This document shows, piece by piece, positions 5,664-46,331 of a DNA stretch of 46,331 nt (its first letter is position 1; every line of letters starts with the position of its first letter). This DNA comes from a virus (lineage: Duplodnaviria > Heunggongvirae > Uroviricota > Caudoviricetes). The stretch lies in IMG/VR virus record IMGVR_UViG_2877948078_000002; one strand, written 5' to 3'. The notes under the pieces are model-generated. The model was not told the DNA's origin. It did no database searches and saw nothing but the letters and a program-made list of their open reading frames with translations. The position numbers and the translations under genes were made by a program.

Positions 5664-5819
5664 TCACTCACCTGAGTTTCTTTCCAGCCAGCGACGGGCA
5701 CCATTTTCGGTTTTAAACGTTTTGCTTTTGGTATACGTCATCGCGGTGAACGTGCCGTCCTGGTTGGGGAACACGCCACATACCAGAGATTCGCTGTTGC
5801 CAAGATCGATAGTATCCAT
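5664..5819 (-). CDS. ydfA: YdfA-like small protein (51 aa)
   Basis: Internal ATG at 5817-5819 gives 51 aa MDTIDLGNSESLVCGVFPNQDGTFTAMTYTKSKTFKTENGARRWLERNSGE; first gene downstream of dicA on the same strand, as in Qin. Confidence 0.7.
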   Translation of the reverse strand: MDTIDLGNSESLVCGVFPNQDGTFTAMTYTKSKTFKTENGARRWLERNSGE

Positions 5820-5933
5820 GCTGACCTCATTTCCCCTTAACGCCGGGGTAGCGGAACTGTTTGCTGAGAACACCGTGCGGTGTCTTGATGGAAAGCAATT
5901 TAGAATAACCTAACATAAGAGGCAAGTGTTTTT

Positions 5934-5951
5934 TGTTAGATTAGTCTAACA
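5934..5951. promoter_or_regulatory. Palindromic operator TGTTAGA-N4-TCTAACA (putative DicA site) in the promoter region of the leftward ydfA…dicB operon
   Basis: Perfect 7-bp inverted repeat with 4-bp spacer (TGTTAGATTAGTCTAACA) between dicA stop and ydfA start; second copy of the same half-sites at 6445..6462. Confidence 0.6.
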
Positions 5952-5987
5952 AAAAGAGTGGGCGCAACTAATCACTTGAAAAGAATG

Positions 5988-6395
5988 TTATTTTATTGAT
6001 TTATTTTTACGCGCTTTAAGCATTTCTTCGAAGAGTTTGTTGAAGTTTTCTACTCTTGCGCGCATTTCAGACAGCAAGGCTTCCTGCTCGGAAGATGGAA
6101 GAGCATCGAATAATTCGATCAATTCTTTGTGGTTGGGAGTTAGCTCTGTTTCCACATGAAGTTCTTGTGCCGGCACTGGTGCCTTGTCTTCGTCACCAAA
6201 CATTAGCCATGTAGGTGAGCACTTCAGAGCATCCGCTAAAGCAAACAATCGTTTTCCGACTGGCTGGGTTTCGTCTCTTTCCCATTGTGAAATTGTGACG
6301 TGAGCAACCCCAGCGAGGCGCGCAGCTTCTCGTTGTGTTAAGCGTAATTCTTTTCGTCGCGCCAGAACTCGCTGGCCTAGGGTTCTTGTATCCAT
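5988..6395 (-). CDS. dicA: Prophage repressor DicA (XRE-family HTH, C2/cI-like)
   Basis: 135-aa product MDTRTLGQRVLARRKELRLTQREAARLAGVAHVTISQWERDETQP… with HTH motif; closely resembles DicA as recalled; divergent from a cro-like gene. Confidence 0.9.
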   Translation of the reverse strand: MDTRTLGQRVLARRKELRLTQREAARLAGVAHVTISQWERDETQPVGKRLFALADALKCSPTWLMFGDEDKAPVPAQELHVETELTPNHKELIELFDALPSSEQEALLSEMRARVENFNKLFEEMLKARKNKSIK

Positions 6396-6417
6396 AGTTA
6401 GGTAATTCTAATTTTTC

Positions 6418-6445
6418 TTGACTTAGGTATCCCGCGCACAATAAT
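6418..6445 (+). promoter_or_regulatory. Candidate sigma70 promoter for dicC (-35 TTGACT, about 16-17 nt spacer, -10 CATAAT/ATAATG) overlapping the operator
   Basis: TTGACT at 6418..6423, -10-like hexamer at 6440..6446, operator palindrome begins at 6445. Confidence 0.45.
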
Positions 6446-6462
6446 GTTAGAAAAGTCTAACA
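6445..6462. promoter_or_regulatory. Palindromic operator TGTTAGA-N4-TCTAACA in the dicA/dicC divergent intergenic region
   Basis: TGTTAGAAAAGTCTAACA; identical half-sites to the 5934..5951 copy; overlaps the -10/+1 of the dicC promoter candidate. Confidence 0.6.
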
Positions 6463-6475
6463 ATAGGAGGCTTTG

Positions 6476-6703
6476 ATGCTTAAAGCTGACGCAATTACTT
6501 TTTTTGGCAGCAAAACAAAGCTTGCCAATGCCGCAGGAGTGAGACTGGCAAGTGTTGCTGCTTGGGGGATACTGGTTCCTGAAGGTCGCGCGATGCGTCT
6601 ACAGGAGGCATCTGGCGGGGAGCTTCAGTATGATCCCAAAGTTTATGACGAATATCGTAAGACGAAGCGGGCGGGGCGATTGAACAATGAAAATCACTCC
6701 TGA
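6476..6703 (+). CDS. dicC: Cro-like regulator DicC
   Basis: About 75-aa product MLKADAITFFGSKTKLANAAGVRLASVAAWG…EGRAMRLQEASGGELQYDPKVYDEY…; AGGAGG Shine-Dalgarno 5 nt upstream of the ATG; divergent from dicA. Confidence 0.85.
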   Translation: MLKADAITFFGSKTKLANAAGVRLASVAAWGILVPEGRAMRLQEASGGELQYDPKVYDEYRKTKRAGRLNNENHS

Positions 6704-8934: not shown

Positions 8935-10422
8935 GTGGACATTAGAGACTGGCTACCAGAATTTCAAGTTTCAGCAGAAACAGATCGGGACTTACAGACC
9001 TATTTTTTTAAGCTACCGGCGATAAAGGATATTATTGAAAGTAGGGCTTGGTTGGTTCTTGGAAGAAAAGGTACTGGTAAAACAGCCATTTATGAACACC
9101 TTAGAAGAGGAAAACCAGCCAATCTCAACGGGTTTTACTCAGTATGTCTAAATTTTAGTGACTATCCATGGCCAGCCCATCAACTTTACAAGGATGCAAT
9201 GGCTGGAGAACTTTCCGCTTATCAAAAAAGTTGGATGTATCTTTTTTATATTAAGGCATTATCTAAACTTATTGAAATAAAAAATGATGCTGGAGAGACT
9301 TTAAACAAAGATCTAACGTGGGCACATAATTATATCAAAACTATCTTTGGTAGTCCCGACCCAACTCTTAGGGAGGTTTTGTTTTCAAAAATAACTAGAT
9401 TAAAAACCATAAAAGGGCCCAGTGCTGGTCTTAATGAAGTATCATTGGACGCAGGTGAAATTTCGTTAGAGGAAGTTGCTGAGAATGCTCAGCTAAAGCA
9501 AAAGCTAAGAGCTAATGCTTTCACATTGCTTACGTATTTTGAAAAAATTTTTAAAGATAACATTGGTAATGAAAAAATAATTATCGCCCTTGACCAATTA
9601 GACGAAAACTGGCTAGAGGGGCAAATTGAAGAATATAGTAAGGTTTTAATAAATCTGCTAAATGTCTGTAGAAACATAGCATCTGATGAACGCCTCAATG
9701 ATAAATTAAAAGTCATTCCCTTCCTACGAACGGATATTTATCATTCTTTGAAATTCAATGATAAAAACAAATTATTGCAAGATAGTGCTATCATAATCTC
9801 ATGGAATGAAAATAATCTAAACGATATGTATTATGAGAGGATAAAGAAATACAAACCTAATGATCTCATATTAGATGACGAAAAGGACAGATCTGGGAAA
9901 GTATTTGAGGTTTCATTCGTTAGGCAGGGGACTCCTCCATTTAAATATATATGTCGCCGTTCTTTCTTTAGGCCTAGGGATATTATTGTCTACTTCAACA
10001 AAATTAGGGCATGTCATAAAAATAATGTCTCAGGTCTTTACACTTCCAATGAGCTTTATGAAGCTGACCGTGAAGCATCTATAAGTGTGTACAATGAGGT
10101 GATTGATGAATGGTCCAACCAATTCCCTGAAATTGAGAACTTACTAACTGTTCTTCAAACTATCCAAGTAGAAACATTCGATTTTAATGATTTCTCCGAG
10201 AAGTGCCGTAATGAATTTGCAGGTATTTCTGATGGGGTGATACGTCAATATATCAACTTCCTGTTTGATAACTCACTTATCGGACAAAAAAAACAAGGTA
10301 GATGGGAATACGTAAGTAGTTTGCCTAACTTAAAAATTAATCTACAAAATGAGTTTAGGACACATCATGCTTTAAAATACAGGTTGCATTTAATAGAAAG
10401 CAGACCGAGCCAAAATATTTAG
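8935..10422 (+). CDS. Uncharacterized P-loop NTPase (495 aa): Walker A GRKGTGKT at residues 43-50, Walker B-like IIIALDQLDE at 215-224, uncharacterized C-terminal half of about 270 aa; candidate defence or exclusion gene
   Basis: GTG start with AAGAGGA Shine-Dalgarno; gene and upstream region visibly AT-rich compared with flanking phage genes (estimate by eye, roughly 35-40% versus about 50% G+C); occupies the slot that holds relBE next to hokD in K-12 Qin as recalled. Confidence 0.85.
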   Translation: MDIRDWLPEFQVSAETDRDLQTYFFKLPAIKDIIESRAWLVLGRKGTGKTAIYEHLRRGKPANLNGFYSVCLNFSDYPWPAHQLYKDAMAGELSAYQKSWMYLFYIKALSKLIEIKNDAGETLNKDLTWAHNYIKTIFGSPDPTLREVLFSKITRLKTIKGPSAGLNEVSLDAGEISLEEVAENAQLKQKLRANAFTLLTYFEKIFKDNIGNEKIIIALDQLDENWLEGQIEEYSKVLINLLNVCRNIASDERLNDKLKVIPFLRTDIYHSLKFNDKNKLLQDSAIIISWNENNLNDMYYERIKKYKPNDLILDDEKDRSGKVFEVSFVRQGTPPFKYICRRSFFRPRDIIVYFNKIRACHKNNVSGLYTSNELYEADREASISVYNEVIDEWSNQFPEIENLLTVLQTIQVETFDFNDFSEKCRNEFAGISDGVIRQYINFLFDNSLIGQKKQGRWEYVSSLPNLKINLQNEFRTHHALKYRLHLIESRPSQNI

Positions 10423-34967: not shown

Positions 34968-38369
<3,402 letters not shown>

Positions 38370-38387
38370 ATTTTATAACCCAGAACG

Positions 38388-38412
38388 GGCGTCAGAAATG
38401 ACGCCTTTTTTA
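38388..38412 (+). terminator. Intrinsic terminator after J
   Basis: Hairpin GGCGTCA-GAAA-TGACGCC followed by TTTTTTATT. Confidence 0.6.
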
Positions 38413-38435
38413 TTGCAGAAAAGCGAGAGGTAATT

Positions 38436-39035
38436 ATGCGTAAACTTTATGCCGCCATTTTGTCCGCAGCCATTTGTCTGGCCGTATCCGGTGCGCCTGC
38501 ATGGGCGTCTGAACATCAGTCCACGCTGAGCGCGGGGTATCTTCATGCCCGGACGAACGTTCCCGGCAGTGATGATCTGAACGGGATTAACGTGAAATAC
38601 CGTTATGAGTTTACGGACACACTGGGGATGGTGACGTCGTTCAGCTATGCAGGAGACAAGAATCGCCAGATTACCCGTTACAGCGATACCCGCTGGCATG
38701 AAGATTCCGTTCGTAACCGCTGGTTCAGCGTAATGGCGGGGCCGTCTGTGCGCGTGAATGAATGGTTCAGCGCGTATGCGATGGCGGGTGTGGCTTACAG
38801 CCGTGTGTCGACTTTCTCCGGGGATTATCTCCGCGTAACTGACAACAAGGGGAAAAAGCACGATGTGCTGACCGGAAGTGATGACGGTCGCCACAGCAAC
38901 ACGTCTCTGGCGTGGGGAGCTGGCGTGCAGTTTAACCCGACCGAATCCGTGGCCATTGATGTCGCTTATGAAGGCTCCGGCAGTGGTGACTGGCGCACTG
39001 ACGGGTTCATCGTGGGTGTTGGTTATAAATTCTGA
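38436..39035 (+). CDS. lom: Lom-like outer-membrane beta-barrel protein (Ail/Lom/PagC family)
   Basis: 199-aa product with signal peptide ([24 protein letters not shown]) and C-terminal aromatic residue (…GVGYKF); position after J as in lambda. Confidence 0.85.
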
Positions 39036-39061
39036 TTAGCCAGGTAACACAGTGTTATGAC

Positions 39062-39088
39062 AGCCCGCCGGTTCAGGCGGGCTTTTTT
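39062..39088 (+). terminator. Intrinsic terminator after lom
   Basis: Hairpin AGCCCGCC-GGTTCAG-GCGGGCT followed by TTTTTTG. Confidence 0.65.
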
Positions 39089-39099
39089 GTGGGGTGAAT

Positions 39100-42000
39100 A
39101 TGGCAGTAAAAATTTCAGGTGTACTGAAAGACGGCACAGGAAAACCGGTACAGAACTGCACAATCCAGCTGAAAGCAAAACGTAACAGCACCACGGTGGT
39201 GGTGAACACGCTGGCCTCAGAAAATCCGGATGAAGCCGGGCGTTACAGCATGGACGTTGAGTACGGTCAGTACAGCGTTATTCTGTTGGTGGAAGGATTC
39301 CCGCCGTCACATGCCGGGACCATCACCGTGTATGAAGATTCCCGACCCGGTACGCTGAATGATTTTCTCGGTGCCATGACGGAGGATGATGCCCGTCCGG
39401 AGGCACTGCGCCGTTTTGAGCTGATGGTGGAAGAGGTGGCGCGTAACGCGTCCGCGGTGGCACAGAACACGGCAGCCGCGAAGAAGTCAGCCAGTGATGC
39501 CGGCACATCTGCCAGTGAGGCGGCAACCCATGCGACTGATGCTGCAGGCTCAGCGCGTGCAGCCAGCACGTCAGCCGGACAGGCCGCGACGTCGGCTCAG
39601 GAGGCGTCTTCCAGCGCAGGAACAGCATCAACAAAGGCCACAGAAGCATCAAAAAGTGCTGCCGCTGCAGAGTCCTCAAAAAGCGCGGCGGCCACCAGTG
39701 CCGGTGCCGCGAAAACGTCAGAAACGAATGCTGCAGCGTCACAAAAATCAGCAGCCACTTCTGCATCCACTGCGACGACGAAAGCGTCAGAAGCCGCCAC
39801 TTCAGCCAGAGATGCGGCGGCCTCCAAAGAGGCGGCAAAATCATCAGAAACGAACGCCTCCACAAGCGCCAGCAGTGCAGCCTCCTCGGCAACGGCGGCA
39901 GGAAATTCCGTGAAGGCGGCAAAAACGTCCGAGACGAATGCTAAGTCTTCTGAAACGGCAGCGGAACAGAGCGCCTCAGCTGCGGCAGACTCTGAGACAG
40001 CAGCTGCATCATCGGCCCGTGAGGCGTCCATTAAGGCAGAGGAGGCAGCAGTCAGTGCCACCGCCGCCGGAAAATCGGCAGAAAGCGCCGCATCATCCGC
40101 TTCAACAGCCACAACGAAGGCTGGCGAAGCCACTGAACAGGCCAGCGCAGCAGCGAGGTCTGCTTCCGCAGCGAAGACATCCGAAACGAACGCGAAAGCG
40201 TCGGAAACCAGCGCAGAATCCTCAAAAACGGCTGCCGCATCGTCCGCCAGTTCGGCGGCGTCATCGGCATCATCTGCGTCTGCTTCAAAAGATGAGGCGA
40301 CCAGACAGGCGTCAGCAGCGAAGGGCAGCGCCACGACAGCATCCACGAAGGCGACAGAGGCAGCTGGCAGTGCGACGGCGGCAGCACAGAGCAAAAGTAC
40401 GGCGGAATCCGCGGCAACGCGCGCCGAGACAGCAGCTAAACGGGCAGAGGATATTGCATCCGCCGTGGCGCTTGAGGATGCAAGTACGACGAAAAAGGGG
40501 ATAGTACAGCTCAGCAGTGCGACCAACAGTACGTCTGAAACGCTGGCGGCAACGCCAAAGGCAGTAAAATCAGCCTATGACAATGCAGAGAAACGTCTGC
40601 AGAAAGACCAGAACGGCGCTGATATACCCGATAAGGGACGCTTCCTGAACAACATTAACGCGGTCAGTAAAACAGACTTTGCTGATAAGCGTGGTATGCG
40701 TTATGTGCGGGTTAACGCTCCTGCAGGTGCAACATCTGGAAAATATTACCCTGTTGTTGTTATGCGTTCTGCTGGCTCAGTAAGCGAACTGGCATCAAGG
40801 GTCATTATCACCACGGCACCGCGAACCGCAGGCGATCCGATGAATAACTGCGAGTTTAACGGATTTGTTATGCCTGGTGGCTGGACTGACAGGGGGCGTT
40901 ATGCTTATGGAATGTTCTGGCAATATCAAAACAATGAACGAGCCATCCACTCAATAATGATGAGTAATAAGGGCGATGATTTGCGCTCTGTGTTCTATGT
41001 TGATGGCGCTGCTTTCCCTGTTTTTGCGTTTATCGAAGATGGCCTGTCAATATCCGCACCTGGTGCTGATCTCGTTGTTAATGATACGACCTATAAGTTT
41101 GGGGCAACAAATCCAGCGACTGAATGTATCGCGGCGGACGTTATCCTTGATTTTAAGAGTGGGCGTGGTTTTTATGAGTCTCATTCGTTAATCGTTAACG
41201 ATAACTTGTCGTGCAAAAAACTTTTTGCCACAGACGAAATTGTAGCGCGTGGTGGTAATCAGATTCGAATGATAGGTGGGGAGTATGGTGCATTATGGCG
41301 TAATGATGGCGCTAAAACTTACCTGCTGCTTACCAATCAAGGTGATGTTTATGGTGGCTGGAATACATTAAGACCGTTTGCTATTGATAACGCAACCGGC
41401 GAACTGGTTATTGGAACCAAACTGTCCGCAAGTCTGAACGGTAATGCATTAACAGCAACAAAGCTGCAAACGCCAAGACTGGTTTCTGGTGTTGAGTTTG
41501 ATGGTTCCAAAGATATTACTTTAACCGCCGCGCATGTGGCTGCTTTTGCCAGAAGGGCAACGGATACATATGCCGATGCGGATGGTGGCGTTCCCTGGAA
41601 TGCCGAATCAGGCGCTTACAATGTCACCCGCTCTGGCAACAGCTATATTCTGGTTAACTTCTATACCGGAGTCGGAAGTTGCCGGACATTGCAGATGAAG
41701 GCGCATTACAGAAATGGAGGTCTGTTCTACCGTTCCTCAAGAGATGGCTATGGTTTTGAAGAAGACTGGGCAGAAGTTTATACCTCGAAAAATCTTCCAC
41801 CAGAAAGCTACCCAGTCGGTGCACCAATCCCGTGGCCATCAGATACCGTTCCGTCTGGTTATGCCCTGATGCAGGGGCAGACTTTTGACAAATCTGCTTA
41901 CCCGAAACTTGCAGCCGCTTATCCGTCAGGCGTGATCCCTGATATGCGTGGCTGGACGATTAAGGGCAAACCTGCCAGTGGTCGAGCCGTATTATCTCAG

Positions 42001-42450
42001 GAACAGGACGGCATTAAATCGCACACCCACAGCGCCAGCGCATCCAGTACGGATTTGGGGACGAAAACCACATCGTCGTTTGATTACGGCACTAAATCCA
42101 CGAATAACACCGGGGCGCATACCCATAGTGTTAGCGGTACGGCTGCTTCAGCCGGTGCACATACCCATTCGATAACATTTGTTTCAGGTGGCACCAAAGG
42201 TGCTCCGGGAAGTGGATCACCTGATTATTCTAAATACAGTGTTAACACTTCTTCTGCAGGCGCTCATACGCACTCTGTATCGGGTACTGCTGCAAGCGCA
42301 GGTGCACACGCACATACTGTAGGTATTGGTGCGCATACGCACTCGGTTGCGATTGGTTCACATGGACACACCATCACCGTTAACGCTGCTGGTAACGCGG
42401 AAAACACCGTCAAAAACATCGCATTTAACTATATTGTGAGGCTTGCATAA
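39100..42450 (+). CDS. stf: Side tail fibre protein (Stf) with long Ala/Ser/Thr-rich repeat region and C-terminal His-rich repeats
   Basis: About 1116-aa product beginning [27 protein letters not shown]…; low-complexity repeats ([17 protein letters not shown]…) across about 39480..40500; C-terminal GAHTHS repeats; stop overlaps the tfa start. Confidence 0.85.
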
Positions 42451-43025
42451 TGGCATTCAGAATGAGTGAACAACCACGGACCATAAAAATTTATAATCTG
42501 CTGGCCGGAACTAATGAATTTATTGGTGAAGGTGATGCATATATTCCGCCTCATACAGGTCTGCCAGCAAACAGTACCGATATTGCACCGCCAGATATTC
42601 CGGCTGGCTTCGTGGCTGTTTTCAACAGTGATGAGTCATCGTGGCATCTCGTTGAAGATCATCGGGGTAAAACGGTTTATGACGTGGCTTCCGGCGACGC
42701 GTTATTTATTTCTGAACTCGGTCCGTTACCGGAAAATGTTACCTGGTTATCGCCGGAAGGGGAGTTTCAGAAGTGGAACGGCACAGCCTGGGTGAAGGAT
42801 ACGGAAGCAGAAAAACTGTTCCGGATCCGGGAGGCGGAAGAAACAAAAAACAACCTGATGCAGGTAGCCAGTGAGCATATTGCGCCGCTTCAGGATGCTG
42901 CAGATCTGGAAATTGCAACGGAGGAAGAAATCTCGTTGCTGGAAGCATGGAAAAAGTATCGGGTATTGCTGAACCGTGTTGATACGTCAACTGCACAGGA
43001 TATTGAATGGCCAGCACTGCCGTAG
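42450..43025 (+). CDS. tfa: Tail fibre assembly protein (Tfa)
   Basis: 191-aa ORF immediately after stf (TAATG overlap); size and position of lambdoid Tfa. Confidence 0.85.
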
Positions 43026-43122
43026 GGTAAAACATATAAATTCTATAATTAGATGTATCTTTCCATTTACGGCAAGGAAGGGGGCTTGGAAGACGTAAAG
43101 CATCTCACACCGAGATTATTTT

Positions 43123-43713
43123 TTATATGTCAGGTGTCTGAAGTTTTGCTTTGGCTCTTAAAATGGTTTGCCGCGAGGTTTTGAATTCCCGGGCAATGGC
43201 ACTTATACTTACACTTGACTTAATTCGTTCGAATACCACCTGTTTCTGTTCTTCATTTAACACAGGTGGTCGACCAAAACGTTTCCCTGCGCCGCGGGCT
43301 CTTACTATCCCGGAATGAGTGCGTTCAAGTAAAAGGTCTCGTTCAAATTCAGCAACTGCTGAAATTACTTGCATCATCATTTTTCCTGTTGGACTGGTCA
43401 AGTCAATGCCCCCCAATGCTAAGCAATGCACTCTGATACCTGTTTCGGTCAGTTGTTCCACTGTTTTCCTGATATCCATTGCATTACAACCAAGGCGATC
43501 CAGTTTTGTCACAATCAATTGATCACCACATTTCAGGCGAGCAAGCAACCGGTTAAAACTAGGACGCTCACTGGTTGCTGCTGAGCCGCTAATGTGTTCT
43601 TCGATTATTTGCTGAGGTTTGATTTTAAAACCTGCACTTTCGATTTCCCGGCGTTGATTTTCGGTGGTCTGATCCAGCGTTGATATCCGACAGTAAGCAA
43701 AAATTCGAGACAT
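43123..43713 (-). CDS. pin: Serine recombinase DNA invertase (Pin/Gin/Hin family)
   Basis: 196-aa product [20 protein letters not shown]… with catalytic Ser in the N-terminal motif and a C-terminal HTH; convergent with tfa. Confidence 0.9.
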
Positions 43714-44029
43714 AGTGAGACTCTATACGAAATTGGTGTTCATATCATAATGCATCTCAGAAAATAATTTTGATTATTTTTGTGCATATTTGTATGTACA
43801 CGTTCGAAAATAAACGAATGCGTATGCAACCCCGTAATTTTGGTGAGACCCAAAATCGATTTTGTGAAAAATGGCTTTAACTCGGTTTGTTTTTCGAGTT
43901 CTGGGCGGACTCAAGGAAGAAGAATAGTGTTTCGTGTTATTTTAACCAGATTTTAAGTTGTTTGGTCGTGGAAAAGTGGAGCAAAATGTTGTTAAAGTGG
44001 AAAAATGATAAAAAAGTAAGTTTATTATA

Positions 44030-44263
44030 TTACATTTTACCATTTAAATTTTGGTTGTCTTTAAGAACTGATATCGCTGTTTGTAATAATTCTTTGTTAT
44101 CCAGCCATGATTTTTTCTTTATGTTTCCTTCAATGTAATCAAGCAATGTTCTGGTATTGATAGGTCTTCCCTGTTTTGCTACTTCCACTACAGCATCCCC
44201 TAGGATAATTCTTACTTCAGGAAGCTGCGCAGGGAACCACTTTAGGGTGTCTTTTGATTTCAT
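44030..44263 (-). CDS. ydfK: YdfK-like small protein (77 aa)
   Basis: Internal ATG with AAGGAA Shine-Dalgarno gives 77 aa MKSKDTLKWFPAQLPEVRIILGDAVVEVAKQGRPINTRTLLDYIEG…, matching YdfK/YnaE as recalled. Confidence 0.6.
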   Translation of the reverse strand: MKSKDTLKWFPAQLPEVRIILGDAVVEVAKQGRPINTRTLLDYIEGNIKKKSWLDNKELLQTAISVLKDNQNLNGKM

Positions 44264-45047
44264 GAAGATATTCCTTAAAATATTATTGATTTTCATTGCG
44301 ATATTGTATGTCTGATTCAGGATATGTTGACTTATACATCGGTTTTGTCTGGGTTATTGGATATGCCAATCCCTAATTTTATTAGGGCATGACTAAAAAT
44401 GCTGAATATGATAAGGAGAGAAGTGATTATCAGTATGCTGTTCATATAGCCTCGAATTAGTAATGTGTTATATATGATATAGTTGACAATTTTTATCTTG
44501 GGTGTTCTTAAAGTTCGTAGATAAACATTGTCGTTTCAGGTATACAGGAATGCTAACAGGTGGCAGCAAAAATCAGGCGGTTATGGCGCAAGCTGAAGCG
44601 GCAACTGCAAACTATCTTATGCAGAGACTCTACACGGATTGGGTTTAAAAGTATACATAGATAACAGTTTTTATCTGAAAAAGAAAAATATCAAGGTGAT
44701 ATAGCCTATATGCCTTTGATGCGGAGGAATGAATGTGATGGGAGTGATGTATCTGAATAGTTGAAAAACCGCAGACACGCCTTATGCAAGAACGTGCTGC
44801 GGTTGGCTGGTAAATTTTTCGATAGTGTGAGTATTGAATGATTTCCAGCCGTTCTTGATTTTACGCATAAATCCATGAAAAAACTACTTATCTGTTGGGG
44901 AGTTTTTTTGGGGCATATATGGGACAGAAATAGGCCCCAGATAGACACTGAGATCGAACTTAGGATGCTTTTTAAAAAATGCAACTATCTGAAAAAACCT
45001 AGAAAACGCCAAGGAAACCACAGGATGGGAAAAAACACCTGTGAATT

Positions 45048-46331
45048 ATGGATTTCCAGTTATATTCGCTCGGCGCAGCGTTGGTGTTTCATGAAATATT
45101 TTTTCCTGAATCATCAACGGCAATGGCGTTAATTCTGGCAATGGGAACCTACGGTGCAGGTTATGTCGCGCGTATTGTCGGAGCATTTATTTTCGGCAAA
45201 ATGGGCGACAGAATAGGGCGTAAAAAAGTGCTCTTTATTACCATCACCATGATGGGGATCTGTACCACCTTAATTGGTGTGTTACCGACCTATGCACAGA
45301 TTGGTGTTTTTGCCCCCATCTTGCTGGTGACGCTGCGTATTATTCAGGGGTTGGGTGCAGGTGCGGAAATTTCCGGTGCCGGTACGATGCTGGCGGAATA
45401 TGCACCAAAAGGTAAGCGCGGAATTATCTCCTCATTTGTAGCTATGGGAACTAACTGCGGAACCTTGAGCGCAACGGCAATCTGGGCCTTTATGTTCTTC
45501 ATTCTCAGTAAAGAGGAACTGCTGGCGTGGGGATGGCGTATACCGTTCCTGGCGAGCGTTGTCGTGATGGTCTTTGCTATCTGGTTACGTATGAATCTGA
45601 AAGAAAGCCCGGTCTTTGAGAAGGTTAATGACAGCAACCAACCCACAGCAAAACCTGCACCTGCTGGTAGCATGTTCCAGAGCAAATCCTTCTGGCTGGC
45701 AACAGGGCTGCGTTTTGGTCAGGCGGGTAACTCCGGGTTAATTCAGACTTTCCTTGCAGGCTATTTAGTGCAGACGTTATTGTTTAACAAAGCAATTCCA
45801 ACAGATGCATTGATGATTAGTTCGATTCTCGGCTTTATGACCATTCCGTTCCTTGGTTGGTTATCCGATAAAATTGGTCGCCGGATCCCGTATATTATTA
45901 TGAATACCTCCGCGATTGTGCTGGCATGGCCAATGCTTTCTATCATTGTAGATAAAAGCTATGCCCCGAGCACCATTATGGTTGCACTGATTGTGATTCA
46001 TAACTGTGCGGTGCTGGGATTATTTGCTCTGGAAAACATTACCATGGCAGAAATGTTCGGCTGTAAAAACCGCTTTACCCGGATGGCTATTTCTAAAGAA
46101 ATTGGTGGTCTTATCGCTTCCGGTTTTGGTCCTATCCTGGCGGGTATTTTCTGCACCATGACGGAATCCTGGTATCCGATCGCCATTATGATCATGGCAT
46201 ATTCAGTAATTGGTTTAATCTCTGCGCTGAAAATGCCAGAGGTGAAAGACCGTGATTTAAGTGCGCTGGAAGACGCTGCGGAAGATCAACCGCGTGTTGT
46301 AAGAGCTGCGCAACCTTCCAGAAGTCTGTAA
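45048..46331 (+). CDS. ydfJ: MFS transporter YdfJ (metabolite:proton symporter family), probably N-terminally truncated by the prophage insertion
   Basis: 427-aa ORF with multiple transmembrane segments and MFS signature GKMGDRIGRKK; begins inside the conserved first transmembrane region with a stop codon directly upstream of the ATG. Confidence 0.8.
   Translation: MDFQLYSLGAALVFHEIFFPESSTAMALILAMGTYGAGYVARIVGAFIFGKMGDRIGRKKVLFITITMMGICTTLIGVLPTYAQIGVFAPILLVTLRIIQGLGAGAEISGAGTMLAEYAPKGKRGIISSFVAMGTNCGTLSATAIWAFMFFILSKEELLAWGWRIPFLASVVVMVFAIWLRMNLKESPVFEKVNDSNQPTAKPAPAGSMFQSKSFWLATGLRFGQAGNSGLIQTFLAGYLVQTLLFNKAIPTDALMISSILGFMTIPFLGWLSDKIGRRIPYIIMNTSAIVLAWPMLSIIVDKSYAPSTIMVALIVIHNCAVLGLFALENITMAEMFGCKNRFTRMAISKEIGGLIASGFGPILAGIFCTMTESWYPIAIMIMAYSVIGLISALKMPEVKDRDLSALEDAAEDQPRVVRAAQPSRSL

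Follow-up and report, generated by a model that had tools for sequence, protein, structure and literature searches.

We conclude with high confidence that pinQ, a small serine recombinase gene beside the tail-fibre genes of a lambdoid prophage, is in its origin and anatomy the leftover tnpR (resolvase) gene of a decayed Tn3-family transposon and not a tail-fibre invertase. The gene lies in a stretch of Caudoviricetes DNA of 46,331 nucleotides (IMG/VR record IMGVR_UViG_2877948078_000002), which was analysed as a whole and is called the window below. PinQ is 76-85% identical to tnpR genes that adjoin Tn3 transposases. In the window, pinQ is still accompanied by recognisable remains of a res site on one side and of a terminal inverted repeat (IR) on the other, in the same order and register as in the transposons.

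We infer the following history. An ancestral lambdoid phage would have received a Tn3-family transposon just downstream of its tail fibre assembly gene tfa. Decay would then have removed the transposase and the other transposon end. The res site with its three subsites, tnpR (now pinQ) and one terminal IR would have remained, with res and the IR degenerating. Since then, Qin/Rac-type prophages and viable phages may have carried the res-tnpR-IR block along in their b region, under weak-to-moderate purifying selection.

Transposon relics around pinQ

A protein search yielded thousands of PinQ homologues at 76-85% identity, many of them plasmid-borne. With tblastn, homologues were found in 1858 plasmid records, mostly at about 60-85% identity and with Klebsiella as the largest group, and a search of one genome per species added loci in Shewanella, Erwinia, Photorhabdus, Mycoavidus and further genera. 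In Shewanella, the homologue (76% identity) is divergent from a gene for a 1033-amino-acid protein with DUF4158 and DDE_Tnp_Tn3 domains, in an element bounded by inverted repeats whose first 38 nucleotides are GGGGTCCGCTTGGAAAACGGAAAATATCCTACGCTAAG. A Klebsiella element (79% identity) has the same layout, with a 994-amino-acid Tn3 transposase carrying the same two domains, and at two more loci the N-terminus of a transposase is encoded divergently upstream of the resolvase gene. In the E. coli plasmids pECOED and pRM10386-2 (84% identity), the same terminal repeat comes directly after the tnpR stop codon. The terminal repeats of these relatives are 38 bp long and of the GGGG...TAAG type. We gave the transposon no name. 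A gene annotated "pinR" is placed beside Tn5403 on a Klebsiella plasmid (PMC13253593), which would make Tn5403 at most a candidate member of the clade.

Every relative has, within the 115 bp that precede its ATG, a 26-bp dyad (9+8+9), a 32-bp dyad (9+14+9) and a third subsite of ~23 bp, all in the same register and built from the half-site TGT[C/A]CGAAA. In Tn3 and gamma-delta, too, res lies between tnpA and tnpR and consists of three unequally spaced subsites. The half-site of the relatives, TGTCCGAAA, resembles the gamma-delta half-site TGTCCGATA of the 1GDT complex. By analogy, subsite I is presumed to be the crossover site in the intact relatives.

From six of these loci we built a weight matrix for the half-site, leaving the Klebsiella element out of the training; its half-sites nevertheless score 13.8-16.0 bits. 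Applied to the ~10-kb loci of the relatives, the matrix finds exactly the 26-bp and 32-bp res dyads and no others. The more distant Erwinia phage LS-2018a (61% identity) has the half-site GTACTAAA and the recognition helix VTRQSVMR, compared with TTRQTILR. Since half-site and recognition helix covary in this phage, the dyads are putative binding sites of the recombinase. Long inverted repeats at the same phage locus were uninformative, and the locus was useful for this covariation only. A variant arrangement was seen in Erwinia oleae (locus L020, 1268-2652), where two paralogous resolvase genes stand head to head (1268-1864 on the minus strand and 2068-2652 on the plus strand). The dyads between them are symmetric, with 32-bp dyads at 1908-1939 and 1994-2025 around a single 26-bp site I at 1954-1979, as if one crossover subsite served two res sites.

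The corresponding relics in the window are as follows.

43077-43114, plus strand (outer to inner): relic of a 38-bp terminal IR, 25/38 positions matching (binomial P about 1e-7)
43723-43745, minus strand: relic of res subsite III, right half-site TTTCGTATA at 13.0 bits (10.9-15.1 in relatives)
43755-43786, minus strand: relic of res subsite II, 32 bp (9+14+9), left and right half-sites at 4.3 and 3.6 bits (10.9-16.0 in relatives)
43801-43826, minus strand: relic of res subsite I, 26 bp (9+8+9), left and right half-sites at -1.0 and 6.3 bits (11.3-16.4 in relatives)

The IR relic ends 8 bp from the pinQ stop codon and aligns, without gaps and in register, with the repeats behind the stop codon in pECOED and pRM10386-2 and with both Shewanella IRs; its outer GGGG and inner TAAG are altered. 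A second terminal IR is absent from the window. On the other side of the gene all three res subsites are recognisable in register, with sites I and II no longer showing the half-site consensus: the central CG is lost from both half-sites of subsite II, and the left half of subsite I is destroyed. Unlike in every relative, no dyad in the region upstream of pinQ passes the scan. We therefore regard the window res as probably a relic and not a working site. A partner for a family site was also missing: the window as a whole contains one dyad above threshold, at 10341, compared with 0.63 expected by chance, and no partner dyad.

Megablast of the window against the plasmid copies aligned 43084-43772 at 82.8% identity, from inside the IR relic into res. 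Beyond the outer edge of site I the window is no longer homologous to the transposon copies, and the sequence leading to ydfK follows. Therefore the window holds a fragment of the transposon from which tnpA is gone, and no Tn3-type transposase gene adjoining res was found in the window. The res of phage 2H10 is somewhat less decayed than that of the window and, in particular, the recognition helix of PinQ (TSRQTILR) is almost unchanged from that of the transposon relatives. The decay of res thus looks like drift and not like the acquisition of a new specificity. Across the whole window, the family half-site model scores highest at 43442-43451 (TGACCGAAAC, 13.8 bits), where pinQ encodes LTETG. 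This match lacks a partner half-site and probably arises by coincidence from the coding sequence.

The PinQ protein and its Arg-to-Cys substitution

The original prediction had called the gene a Pin-family invertase and expected it to own an invertible segment, a label that is misleading. BLASTP aligns PinQ with PinE of e14 at 42% identity over residues 4-156, that is, over the catalytic domain only, and leaves the C-terminal DNA-binding domain unaligned, while the close relatives of PinQ are Tn3-family resolvases. Among solved structures, Gin scores 100 bits in an alignment that ends at residue 160-165, before the helix-turn-helix (HTH), whereas gamma-delta/Tn3 resolvase scores 77 bits in an alignment that runs through the HTH to residue 185. 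Like the resolvases of Tn3, gamma-delta and Tn21, PinQ is a small serine recombinase with Resolvase and HTH_7 domains; its clade is nevertheless distant from the TnpR proteins of Tn3 and gamma-delta. NCBIfam gave only sub-threshold matches (Mpi, XisF and Ccr) and no family name, the Master DNA invertase Mpi family (NF009949) scoring 85.5 bits, below its cut-off of 272. The PinQ allele of the window has two private changes to Ser, at residues 52 and 166 (G52S and G166S, in ERPSF and KSSVSIS). The common PinQ/PinR alleles have Gly at both positions and nearly all relatives have Gly at 166, a residue of the HTH domain; the Ser at residue 52 is shared with pECOED.

Two codons of the active site are of particular interest.

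43681-43683, minus strand: Ser11, position of the nucleophile, motif YCRIST; kept, and aligned with S9 of Gin and S10 of gamma-delta resolvase
43486-43488, minus strand: Cys76, codon TGT, motif KLDRLG-C-N; aligned with Arg71 of Tn3/gamma-delta resolvase (1GDT, 2GM4, 1ZR2)

In Tn3 numbering, the equivalents of Y6, R8, S10 and R68 are present in PinQ, that of R71 is Cys76, and that of D36 is Glu throughout the PinQ clade. We surveyed the Arg71 position in the 120 best cluster representatives: 114 have Arg, 1 has no recognisable motif, and the 5 with Cys are all phage-type PinQ/PinR clusters. One of these five, a second Cys-bearing allele group (P0009, 84% identity), also lies 97 bp from a tfa gene. 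In Tn3 resolvase, the substitutions R71A and R71K abolish resolution in vivo and make cleavage about 1000-fold slower, although such mutants still bind and synapse site I (PMC2794168). By analogy with R71A and R71K, we infer that PinQ should be a poor catalyst. As its own crossover subsite is ruined in addition to the Cys at the Arg71 position, PinQ is most likely inert in cis.

One locus at first sight resembles an ancestral, Arg-bearing intermediate (cluster P0008, locus L037, E. coli GCA_910593615.1). We rejected it as such, since the locus is mosaic, a phage-type sequence into which a transposon-type tract is patched. At positions 5800-6700 of this locus, a mosaic pin allele stands beside a tfa gene interrupted by IS66; the transposon-type tract between the phage-type flanks carries the catalytic Arg, an intact right half of site II and site III. 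This mosaic indicates that transposon copies on plasmids and the relics in prophages undergo gene conversion with one another. Chimeras of a similar kind are apparently also represented by clusters P0004-P0008.

Present-day function of PinQ

Kirigo et al. (Nucleic Acids Research 2025; PMC12529663) report that PinQ of E. coli K-12 inverts the 1797-bp P segment of e14 in trans, and not adjacent DNA, and that the inverted segment gives rise to a chimeric StfE2 which blocks T2 adsorption. This is the only experimental activity reported for PinQ. The suggestion in the original prediction that the enzyme may act in trans agrees with this claim; that PinQ itself carries out the catalysis is a different matter, and one on which we are doubtful. 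In its general form, the proposal is that PinQ is an active invertase acting in trans on the e14 P segment (pix sites) or on similar Din-type segments, with chimeric fibres blocking T2 adsorption. As a proposal on what PinQ does today, it does not conflict with an origin from a transposon, and we consider it possible while leaning against it.

According to the same paper (PMC12529663), T2 survivors carry the inverted P segment and T2 induces pinQ. Over-expression of PinQ in a PinE-positive strain increased P-segment inversion to 88%, compared with 30% in the wild type, and deletion of pinQ lowered it; deletion of stfP, stfE or e14 abolishes the effect. Further, apart from the equivalent of R71, PinQ keeps its catalytic residues, Ser11 among them, and the pix half-site TCTCCCAAA agrees with the family half-site at 7/9 positions. 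However, the paper also describes a pinE mutant locked in one orientation, so that PinE is required for the inversion, and its main text contains, as far as we found, no catalytic-serine mutant of PinQ, no in vitro assay, no test of PinQ in a pinE-deleted background and no mention of Fis (PMC12529663). The Tn3 resolvase mutants that correspond to the Cys of PinQ are inactive in vivo (PMC2794168), the DNA-binding domain of PinQ is of the resolvase type and cannot be aligned with that of PinE, and no dyad in the e14 region passes the site model of the PinQ family. There is no such target in the window either. Direct catalysis by PinQ on the P segment is thus unproven.

The distribution of the gene bears on the same proposal. 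The 801-bp pinQ module is present in 2869 of 5426 complete E. coli genomes, with at least 99% identity in 2315 records, whereas only about 338 records contain the e14 P segment together with pinE at an identity of at least 95%. Therefore, e14 cannot be the general target of PinQ or the general reason why pinQ persists, although Din-type segments other than the e14 P segment are common. Matches to PinQ at 98-99% identity were also seen on short contigs of metagenome-assembled genomes labelled Alistipes, Draconibacterium and Caldithrix. Almost certainly these contigs are contaminants from E. coli or phage or were mis-binned, and the "trematode" PinQ matches cited in PMC12529663 call for similar caution.

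Several observations weigh against our reading of pinQ as the decayed remnant of a resolvase gene. The catalytic domain scores nearer to Gin than to gamma-delta resolvase, which places the PinQ family near the border between invertases and resolvases. In the searchable literature we found no member of the clade that had been characterised biochemically as a resolvase, and the resolvase role of the relatives is read from their context, namely tnpA, the res layout and the IRs. The effect of the Arg-to-Cys change is likewise extrapolated from the Tn3 mutants. Moreover, the effects of over-expression and deletion published for K-12 suggest that some recombinase-related activity of PinQ may persist despite Cys76 (PMC12529663). 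Finally, the pinQ open reading frame is intact in thousands of genomes, and the ratio of non-synonymous to synonymous substitution rates (dN/dS) between the two Cys-bearing alleles next to tfa is 0.35 (36 non-synonymous and 28 synonymous changes), both of which disfavour a purely dead gene. Between the window and a plasmid copy, dN/dS is 0.15. Constraint on pinQ thus appears relaxed but present, on a small sample.

A further proposal, which we rate as rather unlikely, is that PinQ is a domesticated DNA-binding protein with a non-catalytic role, for example as an autorepressor acting via subsite III or by modulating other recombinases. The two allele groups next to tfa differ by 16% in protein sequence and yet both have Cys76 fixed, and the dN/dS between them would fit a retained role, as would the nearly unchanged recognition helix. 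The right half of subsite III, with its 13.0 bits, is kept beside promoter-like hexamers, and the Tn3 R71 mutants retain binding and synapsis of site I (PMC2794168). However, the high identity among the 2315 records means that an intact reading frame could reflect recent spread and not selection, and with only 64 substitutions behind it the dN/dS of 0.35 carries little weight. Put more broadly, there is some small chance that PinQ and PinR are domesticated resolvases, attenuated by the Arg71-to-Cys change, which are kept for a role other than resolution, for instance biasing PinE inversion in trans or regulating as DNA-binding proteins via the single res half-site that has stayed intact. The published "PinQ invertase" phenotype would then be indirect.

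Invertible segments and the prophage locus

TnpR resolvases normally act on two directly repeated res sites and resolve cointegrates. As a resolvase acts on direct res sites and not on inverted crossover sites, no invertible segment is expected in cis at pinQ. The gene order at the right end of the window, which is the late-gene end of a lambdoid prophage, is as follows.

34971-38369, plus strand: J, lambdoid late gene
38436-39035, plus strand: lom, lambdoid late gene
39094-42450, plus strand: stf, side tail fibre, 1118 amino acids (Pfam phage_tail_N, Gp34_trimer, Collar, Phage_fiber)
42450-43025, plus strand: tfaQ, tail fibre assembly, 191 amino acids (Pfam Caudo_TAP, E=3.6e-43; RefSeq name tfaQ)
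43123-43713, minus strand: pinQ, small serine recombinase, 196 amino acids (Pfam Resolvase, E=1.2e-35; HTH_7, E=2.8e-9)
44030-44296, minus strand: ydfK/ynaE-family gene (RefSeq annotation)
from 45048: 5'-truncated major facilitator superfamily (MFS) transporter gene

Parts of the original prediction held up well here. The recombinase gene is complete and convergent to tfa, the gap estimated at about 100 bp measures 97 bp between the two stop codons, and the absence of an inverted cassette of stf C-terminus and tfa was borne out: stf and tfa occur once each in the window, on the plus strand, and neither has a second, inverted copy. The range given for the invertase began at 42450, which is the start of tfa and not of the recombinase gene. 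What did not materialise were the cryptic crossover sites of the gix, cix or pix type that the prediction had allowed for. The only recombinase-type sites nearby are the degenerate res subsites upstream of pinQ, which lack a partner in the window.

The search for 26-bp inverted crossover sites was negative across the entire 46 kb. The Din consensus (about TTNTCNNAAACC-NN-GGTTTNNGANAA) had 0 matches with up to 3 mismatches, the core AAACC-NN-GGTTT had 1 match compared with 2.0 expected, and the 16-mer of the e14 pix site had 1 distant match (3 mismatches, 3 being allowed) compared with 0.46 expected. As a positive control, both pix sites (TTCTCCCAAACC...) of the K-12 e14 P segment were recovered where expected. 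A scan for pairs of degenerate Fis motifs missed the expected pair in the control pinE; as it had no discriminating power, it was discarded. The 801-bp pinQ module occurs only once in the window by BLAST, and an inverted-repeat search of 38000-46331 gave only short pairs of low identity at chance level. Within stf, no Din-type site was found and hence no crossover site between a constant and a variable part. BLASTP showed no homology between Stf and StfP of e14, for which reason a fossil constant/variable junction cannot be located in stf. Further, the tfa-pinQ junction is collinear and of fixed orientation in 2647 genomes, the order stf, tfa, pin (reversed), ydfK recurs in the viable lambdoid phages 2H10, Kati and PhiR63_1, and no orientation variant was seen among these genomes and phages. 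Probably, no invertible segment ever existed in cis at pinQ.

These results make it very improbable that pinQ is a Din-family invertase (Gin, Cin, Pin, Hin) orphaned by loss of an adjacent stf/tfa segment. Such an origin would account for the historical name "pin", for Gin being the best sequence match in the PDB and for a position next to tail fibre and tfa genes that mimics those of Mu, P1 and e14; with e14 Pin, Mu Gin, P1 Cin and Salmonella Hin, PinQ shares its serine-recombinase chemistry and, by the published report (PMC12529663), the ability to influence the orientation of the e14 P segment. However, the likeness to PinE stops short of the HTH, the DNA-binding domain being of another type, and pinQ is transcribed toward tfa and its tail-fibre neighbours whereas pinE points away from its segment. 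No residual crossover site, alternative cassette or cassette fragment is left at the locus. Instead, the flanks of pinQ are homologous to the res and terminal repeat of Tn3-family elements, and its close relatives adjoin Tn3 transposases. From an intact Tn3 module the window differs in the missing transposase and second IR, the degenerate subsites I and II and IR and the Cys in place of Arg71.

Equally remote is inversion or deletion of tfa and/or pinQ by cryptic, non-canonical sites in cis, such as the 16-nucleotide inverted repeat 42333-42348/43812-43827: one arm overlaps the relic of res site I, but by our estimate chance alone would give about 9 pairs as good as this one (14/16 matches) in 8.3 kb, and it came 24th among 82 pairs. 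Phage 2H10 has not conserved the arm, stf and tfa contain no family-site dyad, the tfa-pinQ orientation is the same in 2647 genomes and four phages, and Kirigo et al. found no inversions within Qin or rac in a BLAST database search (PMC12529663).

By megablast, an identically arranged block, tfaQ-pinQ-ydfK-ynfT-ydfJ', is found in complete E. coli genomes of RefSeq (best match 99.6%), and the host element is a Qin-type lambdoid prophage inserted in ydfJ. The gene is the same as pinQ (Qin) and pinR (Rac) of K-12, with 98-99% protein identity, the same neighbours tfaQ, ydfK and ydfJ' and no adjacent segment; it differs in that the prophage of the window is apparently full-length, whereas that of K-12 is a remnant. 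The ydfK neighbour also adjoins the pin gene in L037 and in the phages 2H10 and PhiR63_1. Together with pinQ it forms a travelling block of the prophage b region, and it lies outside the transposon relic.

Some features of the flanking DNA were recorded besides. A long Ala/Ser/Thr-rich repeat region of stf (window 39400-40530, roughly amino acids 120-470, with motifs such as KTSETNA) produces spurious long open reading frames on the opposite strand and in other frames. At 43012-43080, genomes with a related tfa and no pinQ lose homology ~13 nucleotides before the tfa stop codon, so that the last tfa codons and a 50-bp spacer travel with the pinQ-ydfK block and not with the rest of tfa. A terminator scan of the tfa-pinQ spacer found none. 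Between pinQ and ydfK, just outside the res relic, lies the palindrome ATTTTGG-N6-CCAAAAT (43837-43856). Its arms are largely kept in phage 2H10 and in L037 (left arm TTTTTGG) with a different spacer, whereas the transposon copies lack the palindrome. It might bind a protein or fold into an RNA hairpin.

That pinQ exists, that no segment adjoins it and that it has been proposed to act in trans is all already known. We did not find the transposon origin or the Arg71-to-Cys change in the searchable literature, including the passages of PMC12529663 that we consulted, and a literature search for links between pinQ or pinR and Tn3 or tnpR returned nothing relevant; its coverage was incomplete and we claim no priority.

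The annotation "pin" or "DNA invertase", present in about half of E. coli genomes and several phages, suggests a host-range switch that does not exist. As the gene is a leftover transposon resolvase, no tail-fibre switch needs to be sought at pinQ. The anti-phage paradigm proposed in 2025 rests on PinQ as the dominant invertase of the e14 P segment (PMC12529663). The Arg-to-Cys substitution, the resolvase-type DNA-binding domain and the dependence on PinE make this claim directly testable.

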